From positions 4,490 through 68,489 of the forward strand of contig CANPIX010000002.1 in NCBI GenBank assembly GCA_947574215.1: DNA of 64,000 nt, in the 5' to 3' direction. This document shows, piece by piece, positions 9,556 to 43,264 of this stretch. The notes under the pieces were generated by a model. The model was not told the origin of the DNA, searched no databases, and saw nothing but the letters and a program-made list of their open reading frames with translations. Both the position numbers and the translations under genes were made by a program. Position 1 is the stretch's first letter; the number at the start of each line of letters is the position of its first letter. Origin of the DNA: an uncultured Mycoplasmatota bacterium (GTDB lineage: Bacteria > Bacillota_I > Bacilli_A > RF39 > UBA660).

Positions 9556-10524
9556 ATGCCATTAATTACAACACACAATTATTTTGCTAACGACGTTTTT
9601 TCTAAAACAAATAGTAACATTACGAAAACATTTCAAGAGAAAAAAAATATTTATGAACTTTTTGCACAAGGAACCGATCCATTTATCTTTTATGAATGCT
9701 TTCGCCCTAAAAAATCAGATTATCAACATCTTTGCCATACACAAAACACAGATATTTTTTTTCTAAGATTTATAAAAAAAATAAAAGAGAAAAAATTAAC
9801 ACAAAATCCATTGGTACTTGCGTCTCTTTATGGACAGTTAACTCACTATATACTTGATAGTACCATCCATCCTTATGTTGTTTACAAAACGGGATTTTAT
9901 AACAAAAAAGATAAAAATACTCTAAAATACAACGGTCTTCACAACCAATTCGAATTACAACTAGATGCTTATCTGTATGAACAAAGAGAAAAGAAAGCTT
10001 TTAAAAAGTTTAAAATACACAAATATTTAATTGCAAAAGAAAAATGGGATATAGAACTTATAATTTTACTAAATGAAATTTATTATGAAGTATACAATAT
10101 AAAAAATGGTGGTACAAAATTACAAAAAGGCTGTCACATAATGTATAATTCTTATAAATATTTAATAGAAGATAAAATAGGTATTAAAAAGAAAATTTAT
10201 AAATTATTAGATAAAATGACTCCTAAAAAAGTAGGTGTATACGAAAACTTTAATTCACATGTTACCAAAATAGATCTTTCTATACTAAATCAAAATCACA
10301 AAATTTGGTACAATCCTTGGGATAATTCCATAAAAAGTAAAGAATCTTTTTTTGATTTATACAATAAAGCACTAGAAGATTGTATTCTTCTATTTGAAGC
10401 CACCCATAAATTTTTAAATGATCAAATCACCGAGAAAGCATATAAAGATATATTAAAAGATAAATCTTACTTAACTGGATTATCTTGGAAATTAAATAAA
10501 GAAATTAAATATTTAGAGTTTTAA
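9556..10524 (+). CDS. Hypothetical protein, possibly zinc-dependent phospholipase C-like
   Basis: 322 aa. The N-terminus MPLITTHNYFANDVF resembles the His-containing N-terminus of zinc-dependent PLC-family proteins. It is the only plus-strand gene in the left half and overlaps the cwlD 3' end convergently by 12 nt. Weak call. Confidence 0.35.
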   Translation: MPLITTHNYFANDVFSKTNSNITKTFQEKKNIYELFAQGTDPFIFYECFRPKKSDYQHLCHTQNTDIFFLRFIKKIKEKKLTQNPLVLASLYGQLTHYILDSTIHPYVVYKTGFYNKKDKNTLKYNGLHNQFELQLDAYLYEQREKKAFKKFKIHKYLIAKEKWDIELIILLNEIYYEVYNIKNGGTKLQKGCHIMYNSYKYLIEDKIGIKKKIYKLLDKMTPKKVGVYENFNSHVTKIDLSILNQNHKIWYNPWDNSIKSKESFFDLYNKALEDCILLFEATHKFLNDQITEKAYKDILKDKSYLTGLSWKLNKEIKYLEF

Positions 10525-12834: not shown

Positions 12835-13557
12835 TCATTCATAATAAACACTATCTAAATAAAGTCCTCTTGCGGGAGCGCAAGACAAATGATAATCAAA
12901 ATTATCTTCTAACATTTTCTTTAATAACTGTATCTCATACTTTCCTTCATTAATATCCAACATAGCCCCTATTAAATTGCGAATCATATAACGGTAAAAA
13001 CTTTTGCCTATAAAAACAATATTTAATTCATTGTCTTTTAAAATAAATTGAATCTCTTCTATAATCATATCATAATTTTCTCTACTACCGGAAACAAAAT
13101 TATGAAAATTACGACCATACTTTAAAATATTTGCACATTCTTTTAATCTATCCAAATGAATTTTTTTATTATAGAACAAATAATAATCATACCTTTGAGG
13201 ATCATACTCTCCTAACCATATTTTATAAATATATTTTTTTCGTTTTACTGAAAAGCGAGCATGAAATTCATTAGTCATTTTTTTACATTCTTTCACATAA
13301 ATGTAAGGTCGAACAATTGAATTTAACGCAACCAATACTCTTTCCTCGGGAATATCTTGAGTCAAATCAAAATGAGCACATTGTCCATTGGCATGAACCC
13401 CAATATCAGTTCTTCCAGCGCCTTTAATTTCTACACAACTTTTATTTATAATTGTTAAAGCTTCTTCTAAAGTTTTTTGAACACTTTTACCCTCTTTTTG
13501 TCTTTGAAAACCATTAAAATGACTTCCGTCATACGAGAAACGAATCAAATAGCGCAT
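12835..13557 (-). CDS. truA: tRNA pseudouridine(38-40) synthase TruA
   Basis: 240 aa. MRYLIRFSYDGSHFNGFQRQ and GAGRTDIGVHANGQ contain the TruA catalytic-Asp motif. Confidence 0.85.
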   Translation of the reverse strand: MRYLIRFSYDGSHFNGFQRQKEGKSVQKTLEEALTIINKSCVEIKGAGRTDIGVHANGQCAHFDLTQDIPEERVLVALNSIVRPYIYVKECKKMTNEFHARFSVKRKKYIYKIWLGEYDPQRYDYYLFYNKKIHLDRLKECANILKYGRNFHNFVSGSRENYDMIIEEIQFILKDNELNIVFIGKSFYRYMIRNLIGAMLDINEGKYEIQLLKKMLEDNFDYHLSCAPARGLYLDSVYYE

Positions 13558-13560
13558 AAA

Positions 13561-14196
13561 TCACACTTCCCTAAAAATTGCCTTTAATAACTCTTTTAAA
13601 TCTGTATATGGTAATATTTTTTTATCATTTTCTCTTAAATAGTTTACAAACTCTATAATCTTAGGAGGATTCACTAAATTTAGCAATTCTTCTTCATAAA
13701 ATGTAGGTTTATCAAATATTAGAAAATTTTTTTTACTCTTTCGTACCACAATTCGATCCGCAAACTCAAGAAAAAAAGCAAGATTACTATTTAAAAACAC
13801 AAACGTTTTGTGATACTTTTTTACCAATTTTTTAAATAACTTTTTAAAAAAGAACAATTCTTTTTCCATAAAAAATTTATCAAAAGAATCAAAAACTATA
13901 CAATCTACATTTTTTATTAAAAGAATTGCAAGCTCTACTTTCAGAACTTCAGAGGAAGACAAAAAATTCATTTTCTTATCTAAGACTTCTTCGCTTAAAT
14001 GGACTAATTTTAGGCTATCTAACAATTTTTTATCTACACAAGAAGTTTCTTTTAAAATATATTTTTTGACCAATTCCGCATTGTAAGTATTTTTTAAATT
14101 TATTGCATATGTATTTTCGCTGAATACAAGTTCTTCTTTTAAAACATTAAAAAAAGCATTTATACTTTCTGTTTTACAATATTTATTTATTTCCAT
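13561..14196 (-). CDS. Degenerate ABC ATPase-like protein lacking Walker A (EcfA2 position)
   Basis: 211 aa. A signature-like LSSSEVLKVELAILL and a Walker-B-like DCIVFDSFD are present, but there is no P-loop. It occupies the ecfA2 slot upstream of truA. Confidence 0.45.
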   Translation of the reverse strand: MEINKYCKTESINAFFNVLKEELVFSENTYAINLKNTYNAELVKKYILKETSCVDKKLLDSLKLVHLSEEVLDKKMNFLSSSEVLKVELAILLIKNVDCIVFDSFDKFFMEKELFFFKKLFKKLVKKYHKTFVFLNSNLAFFLEFADRIVVRKSKKNFLIFDKPTFYEEELLNLVNPPKIIEFVNYLRENDKKILPYTDLKELLKAIFREV

Positions 14197-14912
14197 AAAG
14201 CACCCACTAACTCTTCTTTAGAACAATAAACTTTATCAATAAGATTATAAAGACGCAATTGAATTGACAAATCCACATAAAATGGAAGTCCTATTCCTAA
14301 ACGTTTTAATAATTTTTCCTGTTCCAAAACCTGTAGGGTTTTTCCTTCAATTGCAATACTTCCCTTATCAAAAACGACCATATATTGATAGTTCAAAGAA
14401 TGTTCAATATTTGTAGAAACATTAACCAATGTAATTTTTTCACTTTTCGCATACTTGTATATTTTTTGTAACATTTTTTCATTTATGTAGGAAAATAAAT
14501 TATCAACAAATAGAAGTTTCGGCTGTTTTAAAAAGGATTTACAAATCAATAGCAATTTTCTTGATTCCAAATTTATATCTTTAATCTTTTTATTCAATGT
14601 ATTTTTTGTAATAAATTTGTTTACAATCTTTTTTTGTTTTTCATCCAAAGTTTTATAATTTAAACTTTCCATTACTGTTTCTTCCTCAAACAATTTGGTA
14701 TCCAACAAAACCTCAACTTTACATAATTTATGAAGACGACCACTATATTTTTTTTCGCCTGCTATAGCTTTTAAAAATAGTGTTTTTCCAGAAGCATTGG
14801 TTCCACAAAGAAACACATTAACGCCTTCATAAAAACATAAAGAAACTTTTTGTAATAAAACTTTTTCTTTATTATGTATAGTCAAATCTTGTATTTCAAA
14901 TAATTTTTTCAT
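14187..14912 (-). CDS. ABC transporter ATP-binding protein-like (EcfA position), with degenerate signature and Walker B
   Basis: Walker A GTNASGKT. Signature LESRKLLL in place of LSGGQ. Walker B LLFVDNLFS (D-N instead of D-E). The likely start is MKKLFEIQDL (14912) rather than the ORF-track start 14954. Confidence 0.55.
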   Translation of the reverse strand: MKKLFEIQDLTIHNKEKVLLQKVSLCFYEGVNVFLCGTNASGKTLFLKAIAGEKKYSGRLHKLCKVEVLLDTKLFEEETVMESLNYKTLDEKQKKIVNKFITKNTLNKKIKDINLESRKLLLICKSFLKQPKLLFVDNLFSYINEKMLQKIYKYAKSEKITLVNVSTNIEHSLNYQYMVVFDKGSIAIEGKTLQVLEQEKLLKRLGIGLPFYVDLSIQLRLYNLIDKVYCSKEELVGALWK

Positions 14913-14969
14913 AAAACCCACCAACTTATAAAATATTATACAAAAAATGAACATTAAAAAAAAGAGTTT

Positions 14970-20471: not shown

Positions 20472-21992
20472 CTATTTATCCATATCTATTCTTTGAAATA
20501 AAATTTCAGCTTCATTTAAGTCATACACAGCATTTTCATTAAATTTAAATGAAGTATCAGTCGAATGAATTTGACTTAAAATTCTTTCACTCGTTTCAGG
20601 TAAGAATGGACTTAAAAATACAGCACATACTCGAATCGCTTCTATTAAATTATAAAGTACGGTTTCAAGTCTTTCTTTTTTACTTTCTTCTTTAGCTAAC
20701 GTCCATGGTGTTGTTTCATCAATATATTTGTTACTTCTTCGTAATACTTCAAAAATTTCATCTATAGCAGATCCAATTTCTAAGTTGGTCATTTTATTAT
20801 CTATTTCACTTTCTAAAGCATTTATCATCGAAATAAGTTCATTATCCACAATTTCAATTACTTTTTTATTTTCTAAGTGACTATCAAAATATTTTTTTGC
20901 CATAGAAATGGTACGATTTACTAAATTCCCTAATATATTTACCAAATCTCCATTTATTCTCTCAATAAGTAAATCTTTAGTAAATACGCCATCACTTGCA
21001 AAAGGAATCTCGTGTAACACATAAAAACGTACTGCATCTACTCCAAATTCTTTCACTAAATCATCAGCATAGATAACATTTCCTTTTGACTTACTCATCT
21101 TTCCATCACTCATAATAAGCCAAGGATGTCCGAAAACTTGTTTTGGAAGAGGTAAATCCAAACTCATTAAAAAACAAGGCCAATAAATGGTATGAAAACG
21201 AATAATATCTTTACCAATCAAATGCAAGTCTGCTGGCCATAATTTATTAAATTCTTCACTTGAACCATCTGGGTCGTAACCTATATTGGTAATGTAATTT
21301 GTTAAAGCATCTAACCATACATAAACCACATGTTGTGGATTTTCTACTACAGGAATTCCCCAATCAAATGAAGTTCTAGAAACACATAAATCTTGTAAAC
21401 CAGGTTTTAAAAAATTATTAATCATTTCATTTTTTCGAGAAGCTGGTTGAATAAATTCTGGATGCGATTCAATATAGTCCATTAACTTTTCTTGATATTT
21501 ACTTAATTTAAAAAAATAAGATTCTTCACTTTTCAACTCTACTTCTCTTCCACAATCTGGACACTTTCCATCTACAAGTTGATTTTCAGTCCAAAAAGAT
21601 TCACAAGGAGTACAATAAAGTCCCTTGTATTCTCCTAAATAAATATCTCCTTTATCCAACATTTTTTTAAATATTTTTTGAACAATTTTCTCATGATGTT
21701 CGTCAGTCGTTCGAACAAATTTATCATAACTAGTATTCATAATATCCCAAATACTTTTAATTTCACTAGCTATCTCATCCACAAATTCTTTTGGTGTTAT
21801 ATTTTCTTCTTTCGCTTTAATTTGGATTTTTTCCCCATGCTCATCGGTTCCAGTTTGAAAATAAACTAAAAAACCTTTCAATCTTTTGTAACGAGCAATT
21901 GCATCTGCTAAAACGATCTCATAAGTATTTCCTATATGAGGTTTTCCTGATGTATATGCAATGGCTGTTGATATATAATACTTTTCTTTCAT
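20472..21992 (-). CDS. metG: Methionine--tRNA ligase (short form without C-terminal tRNA-binding domain)
   Basis: 506 aa. HIGN motif (GKPHIGNTYE), KMSKS motif (GKMSKSKGN) and a zinc knuckle (CPDCGREV). Confidence 0.9.
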   Translation of the reverse strand: MKEKYYISTAIAYTSGKPHIGNTYEIVLADAIARYKRLKGFLVYFQTGTDEHGEKIQIKAKEENITPKEFVDEIASEIKSIWDIMNTSYDKFVRTTDEHHEKIVQKIFKKMLDKGDIYLGEYKGLYCTPCESFWTENQLVDGKCPDCGREVELKSEESYFFKLSKYQEKLMDYIESHPEFIQPASRKNEMINNFLKPGLQDLCVSRTSFDWGIPVVENPQHVVYVWLDALTNYITNIGYDPDGSSEEFNKLWPADLHLIGKDIIRFHTIYWPCFLMSLDLPLPKQVFGHPWLIMSDGKMSKSKGNVIYADDLVKEFGVDAVRFYVLHEIPFASDGVFTKDLLIERINGDLVNILGNLVNRTISMAKKYFDSHLENKKVIEIVDNELISMINALESEIDNKMTNLEIGSAIDEIFEVLRRSNKYIDETTPWTLAKEESKKERLETVLYNLIEAIRVCAVFLSPFLPETSERILSQIHSTDTSFKFNENAVYDLNEAEILFQRIDMDK

Positions 21993-22019: not shown

Positions 22020-22270
22020 TATTTATCCATGATTTTTTTCTAAAACAAAAAAATCACAAATTAAGGGCGAAAAATTTTCCGCGGTACCACCTTAATTCAT
22101 GATTTTAATCATGCACTCTAATTCGTAACGAGAATGAATCGATTTAACTCCAGAACCATGTTCATACTCTTATTTAGATTTACTCGCACCAAATGTAAAT
22201 TCTCTTTGCTAAACAATAAGTACTACTCTTTCCTTCTTTATTAATTGCTTTTATCTTAGCATAGAATTTT
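22020..22270 (-). promoter_or_regulatory. T-box riboswitch leader upstream of metG
   Basis: Plus-strand ccgcggtaccaccttaatt (22079-22097) is the reverse complement of the conserved T-box sequence AATTAAGGTGGTACCGCGG. On the minus strand it is followed by a stem plus U-run (terminator/antiterminator) before the metG RBS. Confidence 0.7.
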
Positions 22271-32320: not shown

Positions 32321-32342
32321 TCTTTTAAACATCCACCTAAAT

Positions 32343-32419
32343 AAAAAAGTGCACACGAACAGAGACTGATGTGGCTGCTATCTTCCGATCCTGACCAGAT
32401 TACAATATATTCGTTGCAC
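32343..32419 (-). ncRNA. ffs: Signal recognition particle RNA (small 4.5S-type, helix 8 / domain IV only)
   Basis: The minus strand reads gugcaacgaauauauuguaaucuGGUCAGGaucGGAAgauAGCAGCCacaucagucucuguucgugugcac followed by uuuuuu. It contains the conserved domain-IV motifs GGUCAGG...GGAA...AGCAGCC around a GNRA-type tetraloop. The ends pair (gugcaacgaa/uucgugugcac). A TTGAAA-17-TATTAT promoter sits at 32454-32426. Confidence 0.7.
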
Positions 32420-32493
32420 AAATAAATAATAACAATTTTTCTTTTATATTTCAAGAAGTTCCACGTGAAACATAGTTTATTTACACTTTCTTA

Positions 32494-41987: not shown

Positions 41988-42314
41988 ATGAAAAAACACG
42001 AAGTAGTTAAATCAAAGTTAGAATTTAATGACATTATTAAAAATTGTCCATTTCGAAAAAATGCAAGTTATGTTATATATATAAGGAAAAAAGAGGAACC
42101 AAAAAAAAGGTTTGGAATCGCTGTATCTAAAAAACTTGGAAATGCTGTAGTAAGAAATAAATTAAAAAGAAGAGTAAGAGCAATTATAGATGAATTAAAG
42201 ATAAACTTTCCAAATGGGCAAGATTATATTATAATGATAAAAAAAAGTTGTGTAGAATTATCATTTTCTAAAATGAAAAAAGATTTAGAAAGTCTAATAA
42301 AGGAGATTCAATGA
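41988..42314 (+). CDS. rnpA: Ribonuclease P protein component
   Basis: MKKHEVVKSKLEFNDIIKN...RFGIAVSKKLGNAVVRNKLKRRVRA matches the RnpA basic RNR-like motif. It overlaps the yidC start (ATGA). Confidence 0.85.
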   Translation: MKKHEVVKSKLEFNDIIKNCPFRKNASYVIYIRKKEEPKKRFGIAVSKKLGNAVVRNKLKRRVRAIIDELKINFPNGQDYIIMIKKSCVELSFSKMKKDLESLIKEIQ

Positions 42315-43264
42315 AAACAAAAAAAATAATTGTATTATTAAGTGCTGTAATGTTAGTAACCGGTTGTGGAAATAAAACGTATTTGAAAGAAGATAAAAAC
42401 ATAGTAACTTATGAAAGTACGGGTCAAAGTTTACAAAATAATATTTTATGTAAACCAGAGGAAGTCGAGTTATATGAATTGTATGAAAAGTACAACGATC
42501 AATTAAGTACAAAATTAGAAGAACTTCCAATATGTAGAGATTTTAAGCCAAGTGATATCAAATATCATAGTTTATGGGAATCTTTGTTTGTAAAACCACT
42601 TGCTTGGCTTATATTAAAATTAGGAATTTTAATTCAGAACTTTGGTATATCTGTTATGCTTATAGGATTAGGAATTCGTTTGGTGTTATTACCATTTTCT
42701 AAAAAGACAATGGATCAATCTGAAAATATGAAAAAAGCTCAACCTGAAATTAAAAAGATAGAAAAAAAATACGCTGGCAAAACCGATAGTGATTCTATGA
42801 TGATGAAAAGTCAAGAAACCATGTTAATCTATAAAAAGTATAAAATCAATCCTGTATCAGGATGTTTAATTGCTTTTATTCAGTTACCTTTGTTCTTTGC
42901 ATTCTTGCAAGCAATAAACAGAGTTCCTGCAATCTTTGAAGATAGTTTGTTTGGGATGAAACTTGGAATGACACCTTGGGTTGGTATTAGCCAAGGAAAA
43001 TATATTTATATAGTATTAATCGTTTTAATTATATTATCTACTTATTTTTCATTTAAAAACGCGATGCAGAATCAAAATACAAATAGTGAAATGGAACGTC
43101 AAATGCAATTTACATTAAAATTTATGATTATTATGATTTCTATAGCATCCTTTAGTCTTCCAACAGCCATTGCTTTGTACTGGGTGGTAACCAATGGATT
43201 TGTAGTAGTACAAAATTTTATATTTAAAAAATTAAGAGAAGGATCTATGAAAAGAGGTAAGTAG
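42311..43264 (+). CDS. yidC: Membrane protein insertase YidC/SpoIIIJ (lipoprotein type)
   Basis: 317 aa. Lipobox LVTGC and a YidC/Oxa1 core with multiple TM segments. Gene order is rnpA-yidC-jag. Confidence 0.85.
   Translation: MKTKKIIVLLSAVMLVTGCGNKTYLKEDKNIVTYESTGQSLQNNILCKPEEVELYELYEKYNDQLSTKLEELPICRDFKPSDIKYHSLWESLFVKPLAWLILKLGILIQNFGISVMLIGLGIRLVLLPFSKKTMDQSENMKKAQPEIKKIEKKYAGKTDSDSMMMKSQETMLIYKKYKINPVSGCLIAFIQLPLFFAFLQAINRVPAIFEDSLFGMKLGMTPWVGISQGKYIYIVLIVLIILSTYFSFKNAMQNQNTNSEMERQMQFTLKFMIIMISIASFSLPTAIALYWVVTNGFVVVQNFIFKKLREGSMKRGK

Follow-up and report, generated by a model that had tools for sequence, protein, structure and literature searches.

An EcfT-less pair of motif-degenerate EcfA1/EcfA2-type genes kept upstream of truA in uncultured gut Bacilli

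Two adjacent genes, here called A1 and A2, were studied in a 64-kb window (64,000 nt of contig CANPIX010000002.1, assembly GCA_947574215.1) from an uncultured Mycoplasmatota bacterium; all coordinates are positions in this window. ORF calls together with Pfam and NCBIfam gave the minus-strand gene order ksgA-yabG-veg-spoVG-yabP-yabQ-divIC-A1-A2-truA-orf115-rplM-rpsI-cwlD. The base composition is ~27% G+C and sporulation genes are present. An earlier note, made from the sequence alone, had described A1 and A2 as a pair of degenerate ATP-binding cassette (ABC) ATPases in the ecfA-ecfA' position. Both minus-strand ORFs are there, and their best models and their fold are those of energy-coupling factor (ECF) ATPases; where the note refers to the rplQ side of truA in Bacillus, the upstream neighbour here is divIC (as part of yabP-yabQ-divIC) and not rplQ.

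The longest A1 frame is open from 14954, the point at which the pair had been taken to begin; this is a 14-codon extension beyond an ATG at 14912. The latter is almost certainly the true start, because a Shine-Dalgarno sequence, GGTGGG, lies 5 nt upstream of it, a TATAAT sequence falls inside the extension and 241 aa is the length of most of the A1 homologues listed. The end of A2 at 13561 stands as given. The start of A2 overlaps the stop of A1 by 10 nt (ATGGAAATAA) and the ATG of truA lies 3 nt past the A2 stop, an arrangement that suggests translational coupling of all three genes. The stop of divIC is immediately followed by a short hairpin, AAGAGT-aaa-ACTCTT, with a T-run, and then by the TATAAT and the Shine-Dalgarno sequence. 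This hairpin and what follows it suggest that A1-A2-truA could have its own promoter and be transcribed apart from yabP-yabQ-divIC; the putative TATAAT promoter was not among the listed matches of a consensus promoter scan. At 27% G+C about 8.5% of random codons are stops, and the probability of a chance open frame is ~6e-10 for 241 codons and ~8e-9 for 211 codons.

Table 1 Positions of the A1-A2 genes, their motifs and other features of the window (strand: -, minus; +, plus)
Feature	Position	Strand	Basis or remark
A1, EcfA1-derived pseudo-ATPase, 241 aa	14187-14912	-	ORF; ABC_tran, NCBIfam ECF models, fold
A1 Walker A/P-loop GTNASGKT, intact	14781-14804	-	translation
A1 Q-loop/Q-helix position VLLDTKLF; Gln replaced by Asp, no Q-helix	14688-14711	-	translation, alignment
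A1 signature position INLESRK instead of LSGGQ	14556-14576	-	translation, profile alignment
A1 Walker B LLFVDN; Asp kept, catalytic Glu replaced by Asn	14499-14516	-	translation, profile alignment
A1 H-loop position VSTNIE; His replaced by Asn	14403-14420	-	translation, profile alignment
A1 ECF-type C-terminal helices LEQEKLLKRLGIGLPFYVDLSIQLRLY	14247-14327	-	conservation; alignment to L. delbrueckii EcfA1
A2, EcfA2-derived protein without P-loop, 211 aa	13561-14196	-	ORF, NCBIfam, fold
A2 signature-like LSSSE	13948-13962	-	aligned to LSGGE
A2 Walker-B-like CIVFDS; no catalytic Glu, Asp not conserved in the clade	13885-13902	-	alignment
A2 H-loop position FLNSNL; no His	13780-13797	-	alignment
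A2 conserved C-terminal helix KELLKAIFREV	13564-13596	-	conservation
truA, third member of the A1-A2-truA unit	12835-13557	-	TIGR00071, 150 bits, above cut-off
divIC-A1 intergenic region	14913-14969	-	hairpin and T-run, TATAAT and Shine-Dalgarno read from the sequence
orf115, 115 aa	12416-12763	-	between truA and rplM; no Pfam, NCBIfam or PADLOC match
T-box leader	22060-22247	-	117.8 bits
506-aa ORF downstream of the T-box leader	20472-21992		
Bacterial small signal recognition particle (SRP) RNA	32333-32430	-	57.4 bits
dnaA	39962-41317	-	
yidC	42311-43264	+	
Zinc-dependent phospholipase-C-like ORF	9556-10524	+	Pfam Zn_dep_PLPC, E 4e-9

A1 matches the Pfam family ABC_tran (PF00005) with 38.6 bits (E 2e-9; gathering score 25 bits) and A2, at 16.3 bits, falls under the gathering score. 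The reading of the A1 motifs in the earlier note, an ordinary GTNASGKT with LESRK for LSGGQ and D-N for D-E in Walker B, was confirmed by translation and by alignment to profiles of canonical ABC domains, in which the degenerate motifs fall exactly on LSGGQ, hhhhDE and the H-loop His. The D-N of Walker B resembles the classical E-to-Q trapping mutation. The description of A2 as a protein without a P-loop that keeps signature-like and Walker-B-like segments also held. A pattern scan for Walker A, G....GK[ST], gave no match in A2, and its two remaining motifs align to LSGGE and hhhDE of ABCE1-type domains. The protein is without the N-terminal ~70 residues and the whole N-terminal β-subdomain, and has no Gln at its Q-loop position (LVFSEN). 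In a head-to-tail dimer the LSSSE of A2 would face the P-loop of A1. The ECF-specific Q-helix, X-P-D/E-X-Q-φ, which follows the Q-loop and has been described as essential for EcfT coupling in ECF ATPases (PMC6828968), is absent: A1 has LLDTKLFEEE and A2 has nothing comparable.

A misreading of these motifs through the AT bias of the sequence, which the earlier note had itself raised, was ruled out, as the profile alignments put the degenerate residues on the canonical positions. Nor is the degeneracy an artefact of composition, because the motifs of a canonical ABC exporter from a related genome (locus L038) are perfect: GPSGCGKS, LSGGQ, ILDEA and AHRL.

The best NCBIfam models of A1 are ECF ATPases and those of A2 are ECF/cobalt ATPases, the equivalog models being TIGR04520/NF010156 for EcfA1 and TIGR04521/NF010170 for EcfA2. 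The scores are far under the cut-offs: 56.5 bits vs 392 and 54.3 vs 315 for A1, and 31.9 vs 432 and 28.7 vs 330 for A2. In a profile comparison the best full-length match of A1 in the Protein Data Bank (PDB) was EcfA1. AlphaFold2 gave models with a predicted local distance difference test score (pLDDT) of 93.4 and a predicted TM-score (pTM) of 0.87 for A1, and 89.6 and 0.81 for A2. The top Foldseek matches of both models were ABC domains with probability 1.00 and TM-scores over the query (TMq) up to 0.87 (A1) and 0.76 (A2). The best matches of A1 were the EcfA/CbiO chains 4mki, 5x40, 6zg3_F and 8bms_A (TMq 0.84-0.87); those of A2 were mostly EcfA2/EcfA' chains, namely 4mki_B, 9kym_B, 8bmq_B, 5jsz_B and 7nnt_B (TMq 0.70-0.76). 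The top match for both was 4mki, an EcfA-EcfA' pair solved alone as a two-chain entry. The C-terminus of A1 (EQEKLLKRLGIGLPF...LVGALWK) aligns to the C-terminal helices of Lactobacillus delbrueckii EcfA1. Such helices contribute to EcfA dimerisation in group II ECF ATPases (PMC6828968), and those of A1 are presumed to be the A1-A2 dimerisation module. In the ancestral ecf operon of Bacilli the ecf genes lie upstream of truA-rplM-rpsI (PMC8046335), and the order in the window, A1-A2-truA-orf115-rplM-rpsI-(cwlD), matches the ancestral one minus ecfT. This shows that A1 and A2 descend, by position and by structure, from ecfA1 and ecfA2 and that both fold as ECF-type nucleotide-binding domains.

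The likeness to group II EcfA1/EcfA2 (L. delbrueckii 5JSZ/8BMS, L. brevis 4HUQ, 4MKI) thus extends from the best sequence and structure matches to two adjacent paralogous genes in an ecf operon upstream of truA-rplM-rpsI, and to ECF-type C-terminal helices with an LKR(L/I)G..(L/I)PF motif and a terminal LW. Unlike group II systems, the locus has no EcfT, Q-helix, LSGGQ, catalytic Glu, H-loop His or Q-loop Gln; the truncation of A2, P-loop included, and scores far under the equivalog cut-offs are further differences. TM287/288, TAP1/2 and CFTR are also asymmetric pairs of nucleotide-binding domains with one non-catalytic composite site. In these, the consensus site has the full catalytic machinery and there is a membrane domain; in A1/A2 one site is absent, the catalytic Glu, His and Gln are missing from the other, and the locus encodes no membrane partner. 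Soluble ABC ATPases (ABC-F proteins such as EttA, ABCE1, SufC) share the ABC fold without a transmembrane domain and give weak sequence matches to both proteins, but they hydrolyse ATP, and their Walker A/B, LSGGQ and H-loop motifs are canonical. This similarity is generic to the fold, and the specific affinity is with ECF ATPases. A defence-system ATPase was considered and rejected, as PADLOC gave only marginal generic matches. The only change to the operon found reported is the deletion of the whole ecfA1A2T in one Alicyclobacillaceae species (PMC8046335), where ECF function was likewise lost from the ancestral operon and truA-rplM-rpsI was left; here, in contrast, ecfT alone is gone, and selection still maintains both ATPase genes. 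No EcfT-less pair of degenerate EcfA genes was found described in the literature searched.

Homologues of A1 fell into 127 clusters and those of A2 into 56, none of the latter (0/56) with a precomputed Pfam match. All are from metagenomes or from metagenome-assembled genomes (MAGs) of uncultured gut 'Bacilli/Tenericutes' of mouse, rabbit, human, chicken and ruminants. Searching 1.84 billion representatives with an A2 profile gave 763 proteins at E <= 1e-3 and 312 at E <= 1e-10. Among the best 150 matches, Walker A was present in 0/62 of the proteins of 170-235 aa and in 26/71 of those of 235-300 aa, and an LSGG[QE] string in one.

Eighty genome loci were examined, and the A1-A2 pair was always directly upstream of truA, with EcfT between in those relatives that have it. 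The loci were sorted into four grades; the counts refer to 79 A1 and 79 A2 sequences, and one locus, L040, was examined by hand and stands outside them. Grade i (19 loci, including L028) has a CbiQ-family EcfT between A2 and truA, with A1 of ~255-270 aa and A2 of ~280 aa. In the other three grades there is no EcfT. Grade ii (12 loci), in which A2 abuts truA, has A1 of 258-271 aa and A2 of 259-277 aa. Grade iii (31 sequences, including the window) has A1 mostly of ~240 aa (213-258, with one ORF call of 291) and A2 of 194-222 aa. In grade iv (17 loci) A1 is 148-165 aa in 16 and 190 aa in one, and A2 is 181-191 aa in 15 and 209 and 265 aa in two; the extreme, motif-free pair, with A1 of 148-162 aa and A2 of 181-191 aa, is found in L043, L044, L046, L047, L049, L052, L058-L062, L065, L073, L075 and L078. 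The upstream neighbours vary, being yabP-yabQ-divIC in grades ii and iii and CofD/YvcK-WhiA in grade iv, so that A1-A2-truA is the sole invariant unit. In the five grade iv loci inspected (L049, L058, L060, L075, L078) whiA is just upstream of A1, with an nrdG-like ORF between them in L075; three of the five also have a CofD/YvcK gene before whiA.

The earlier note had pointed out that truA follows the pair in place of an EcfT gene, and no EcfT-like ORF was indeed found between A2 and truA in the window. In each of the 56 EcfT-less loci with both genes, A2 and truA are -22 to +5 nt apart, in most cases -3 to +5, which shows that ecfT has been precisely excised at this locus. A hidden Markov model for EcfT, built from the EcfT-containing relatives, gave no match in the window or in the flanks of these 56 loci. 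Hydrophobicity screens of the window and of the EcfT-less loci gave no EcfT- or S-component-like ORF, the only multi-pass membrane ORFs of the window being YabQ, YidC, a GT2 and MntP. No other ABC ATPase was found within the window. Riboswitches or other RNAs that would point to vitamin transport were also looked for; the Rfam matches there were a T-box and an SRP RNA only, and no tRNAs were found in the window. A search with the same-clade EcfT of L028, of limited sensitivity and with coverage short of whole genomes, gave 10 proteins, and 3/3 of those looked up sit in situ between A2 and truA. In the public record a masked stretch (N, translated X) breaks the L028 gene (7945-8184 of that locus), which hence looks split as an ORF; the query was the unmasked C-terminal part of this gene, to which an intact 247-aa homologue, P0177, is 98% identical.

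These results bear on the possibility that the pair still energises an ECF module. EcfT and S-components would then be encoded elsewhere, and the site formed by the A1 P-loop and the A2 LSSSE would bind ATP, perhaps with slow hydrolysis, and drive or gate the toppling of S-components. In group II ECF systems the S-components are scattered around the genome, so that the lack of one in 64 kb means little. The absence of EcfT from the window and from the 56 EcfT-less loci speaks against this explanation, as does the fact that same-clade EcfT homologues, where looked up, were only between A2 and truA.

The distribution of the motifs over the grades bears on the same question. The H-loop His and LSGGQ were found in 0/79 A1 and 0/79 A2 sequences, whatever the grade. 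Walker A is present in A1 in 1/19 sequences of grade i, 10/12 of grade ii, 30/31 of grade iii and 0/17 of grade iv, and in A2 in 18/19 of grade i and 0/60 of grades ii-iv. Grade iv thus has a P-loop in neither protein; the Walker-B Asp is also lost in most of its sequences and there is no Pfam match. Some members of the window clade carry a D-E Walker B. The docking helix for EcfT, TVxDE(I/L)AFG, is canonical in grade i and keeps its acidic residues in grade ii. In grade iii it is followed by a 9-residue deletion in A1 and is unconserved in A2, and in grade iv it is gone.

The EcfT-containing relatives (L048-type, L040, L028, L083-L085) resemble the window in their homologous A1/A2, in the equivalent operon position, in the invariant C-terminal motifs and in having no H-loop His or LSGGQ in either ATPase. 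They differ from it in keeping a CbiQ/EcfT-family gene between A2 and truA, and in having full-length proteins with an intact TVxDEIAFG docking helix; in the L048 type (L048, L053, L066, L079; grade i) the P-loop is on A2 and not on A1. The EcfT of this type scores 23.8 bits vs the Pfam CbiQ cut-off of 25, and its two Arg coupling motifs are still readable. The whole super-clade therefore appears to have a strongly non-canonical ECF module of doubtful ATPase competence. As EcfT-keeping grade i is already without the H-loop His and LSGGQ, motif degeneracy, on the sequences compared, predates the loss of EcfT, and the erosion goes on afterwards. In a truA tree the EcfT-less grades are in one large clade, apart from the main EcfT-containing clade, and the EcfT-containing L028 is nested within the EcfT-less clade. 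This suggests one or more losses of EcfT, and as a single-gene neighbour-joining tree it is indicative only.

A pair that still works with EcfT would agree with several of these observations: the EcfT-containing relatives are equally non-canonical yet keep an EcfT with both coupling-helix Arg motifs, A1 still has Walker A and the Walker-B Asp, most of the clade also keeping the acidic residue for EcfT docking, and some members of the window clade have D-E in Walker B. It is harder to reconcile with the missing Q-helix, the deletion in the A1 docking helix, the unconserved docking residue and absent N-terminal β-subdomain of A2, and an erosion that reaches grade iv forms unable to bind nucleotide or EcfT. 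Continued ECF transport is thus considered unlikely, though it deserves to be taken seriously.

Selection on the two genes was estimated from the ratio of non-synonymous to synonymous substitution rates (dN/dS) by the Nei-Gojobori method in closely related pairs. Over every grade the values were 0.02-0.27 for A1, mostly 0.01-0.22 for A2 (with 0.35 for one pair, L053/L068) and 0.04-0.21 for truA. The motif-free grade iv pairs gave 0.10-0.24 where close pairs were comparable. Between the window and its nearest relative, L081, dN/dS is 0.166 for A1 and 0.197 for A2; for the neighbouring genes it is 0.07 (truA), 0.045 (divIC) and 0.11 (yabQ). A1 and A2 of the window are somewhat less constrained than their neighbours but clearly functional. 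The frames of both genes are intact in all 79 related loci where the pair is readable, with identities down to ~25-30%.

Conservation is concentrated in the C-terminal helices, which are nearly invariant in both proteins throughout the erosion series. Those of A1 are the most conserved segment of the family: L202, R204, L205, G206, L209 and Y222 are invariant, as is W240 further downstream, and K203, P210 and F211 are at least 90% conserved. Within residues 170-241 of A1 the EcfT-less sequences conserve E170, Y177, E189-G190, L196, E199-G206, L209-F211, D214-S216, L219, Y222 and W240. In A2 they conserve the signature LS, the helix that follows Walker B and a C-terminal ELxKAIxR. L79 and S80 of A2 are each shared by at least 85% of EcfT-less sequences, as are E202, L203, K205, I207 and R209; E83 and, apart from I207, the C-terminal residues just named are invariant in the window clade.

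The earlier note had also offered a decaying ECF transporter as an explanation, that is, pseudogenes left behind after the loss of ECF transport and without a function of their own. The lost catalytic motifs, the N-terminal truncation of A2, the family scores under threshold and the somewhat faster evolution than in neighbouring genes would fit decay. It was rejected on dN/dS and frame integrity: A1 and A2 are not decaying, because the frames stay open in 79 loci in spite of the high frequency of stops among random codons and of the divergence of the sequences, and because dN/dS is in the range of truA. With confident AlphaFold2 models and nearly invariant C-terminal motifs as well, decay is barely credible. 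A second explanation would be that A1 and A2 are kept mainly as leader cistrons that deliver ribosomes and transcription to truA and whose protein identity is of little weight. A1-A2-truA as the only constant unit, with start and stop codons that overlap or abut at both junctions, is what this predicts, but amino-acid sequence, fold, a dN/dS of ~0.1 and invariant residues such as KRLG..LPF would not then be kept, and the explanation is very improbable.

The favoured reading, given a probability of roughly 0.55, is that A1 and A2 form a non-hydrolysing heterodimer that has been repurposed away from transport and is kept by purifying selection. In this lineage ecfT has been excised at the locus, and the descendants of ecfA1 and ecfA2 would have lost the ATPase chemistry. 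The products would form a soluble, constitutive A1-A2 heterodimer through the retained ECF-type C-terminal helices. Such a dimer would have at most one vestigial nucleotide site, in which the P-loop and Walker-B Asp of A1 face the LSSSE of A2; since A2 has no P-loop, the second site does not exist. To judge from the motifs, Mg-ATP could still bind at the vestigial site, but with the catalytic Glu, the H-loop His and the Q-loop Gln all absent it should not be hydrolysed to any useful extent. The dimer would be unable to drive S-component transport, because EcfT, the Q-helix and an intact EcfT-docking helix are all missing. It may instead serve as a scaffold or as a switch that binds nucleotide, made together with TruA through co-expression and translational coupling. 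The selected function would then not be transport and, in grade iv, would be nucleotide-independent: nucleotide binding appears dispensable in these sister lineages because they are motif-free yet have dN/dS of 0.10-0.24. Two suggestions of the earlier note, a pseudo-ATPase heterodimer with non-canonical ATP handling and a system repurposed for something other than transport, are thus supported by the motif census, the ECF-ATPase fold, the precise excision of ecfT, the loss of the Q-helix, the erosion of the docking helix and the motif-free sister lineages still under selection.

Several points weigh against this reading. The EcfT-keeping relatives already carry similarly degenerate ATPase motifs, and because they are equally degenerate the degeneracy alone is no proof that an EcfT-dependent function has been lost. 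The A1 P-loop is kept in 30/31 window-type sequences and the acidic EcfT-docking residue in most, which would also fit a motor still working with a single site. The search for EcfT and S-components covers 64 kb of this genome, so that ecfT, or another ECF module, may lie outside it. Heterodimer formation, ATP binding and the lack of hydrolysis are all predictions. Finally, apart from the invariant link to truA, gene context pointed to no partner or function.

A more far-reaching version of the repurposed heterodimer can also be put forward, tentatively and with considerable doubt. The C-terminal halves of EcfA1 and EcfA2 may carry a function that is independent of EcfT and ultimately of nucleotide, possibly connected with TruA or translation, and this function would hold ecfA1-ecfA2 to truA. 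A large clade of uncultured gut Bacilli would then have dropped ECF vitamin transport and kept only the moonlighting heterodimer, in its extreme form a pair of 150-aa and 185-aa proteins without ATPase motifs.

ECF transporters are the main route of vitamin uptake in Bacillota and Mollicutes and are pursued as antibacterial targets. A low-GC clade of uncultured gut Bacilli, in which EcfT is deleted, the catalytic motifs are destroyed and both genes are selected, would provide a natural pseudo-enzyme derived from an ABC motor. This would imply either an unrecognised second function of EcfA or an ECF mechanism with hardly any need of ATP chemistry. The series from EcfT-containing through EcfT-less full-length and truncated-A2 to motif-free forms offers natural variants for testing the parts of EcfA1 and EcfA2. 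Because Pfam gives no match for A2-type proteins and detects neither protein in its shortest form, metabolic reconstructions of such MAGs may call the presence or absence of ECF transport wrongly.

Some further features of the window were noted (Table 1). A homologue of orf115 (34-60% identity) occupies the corresponding place in each of 13 related loci, among them L001, L007, L012 and L067, and the best match to it in L002 is a 410-aa ORF. The T-box leader lies upstream of a 506-aa ORF. The gene dnaA is beside a change of sign in GC skew near 42 kb, with yidC on the other side, and the chromosomal replication origin is inside the window. The zinc-dependent phospholipase-C-like ORF overlaps the end of cwlD by 12 nt and is the sole plus-strand ORF of at least 150 aa in the first 42 kb, which is otherwise minus-strand.

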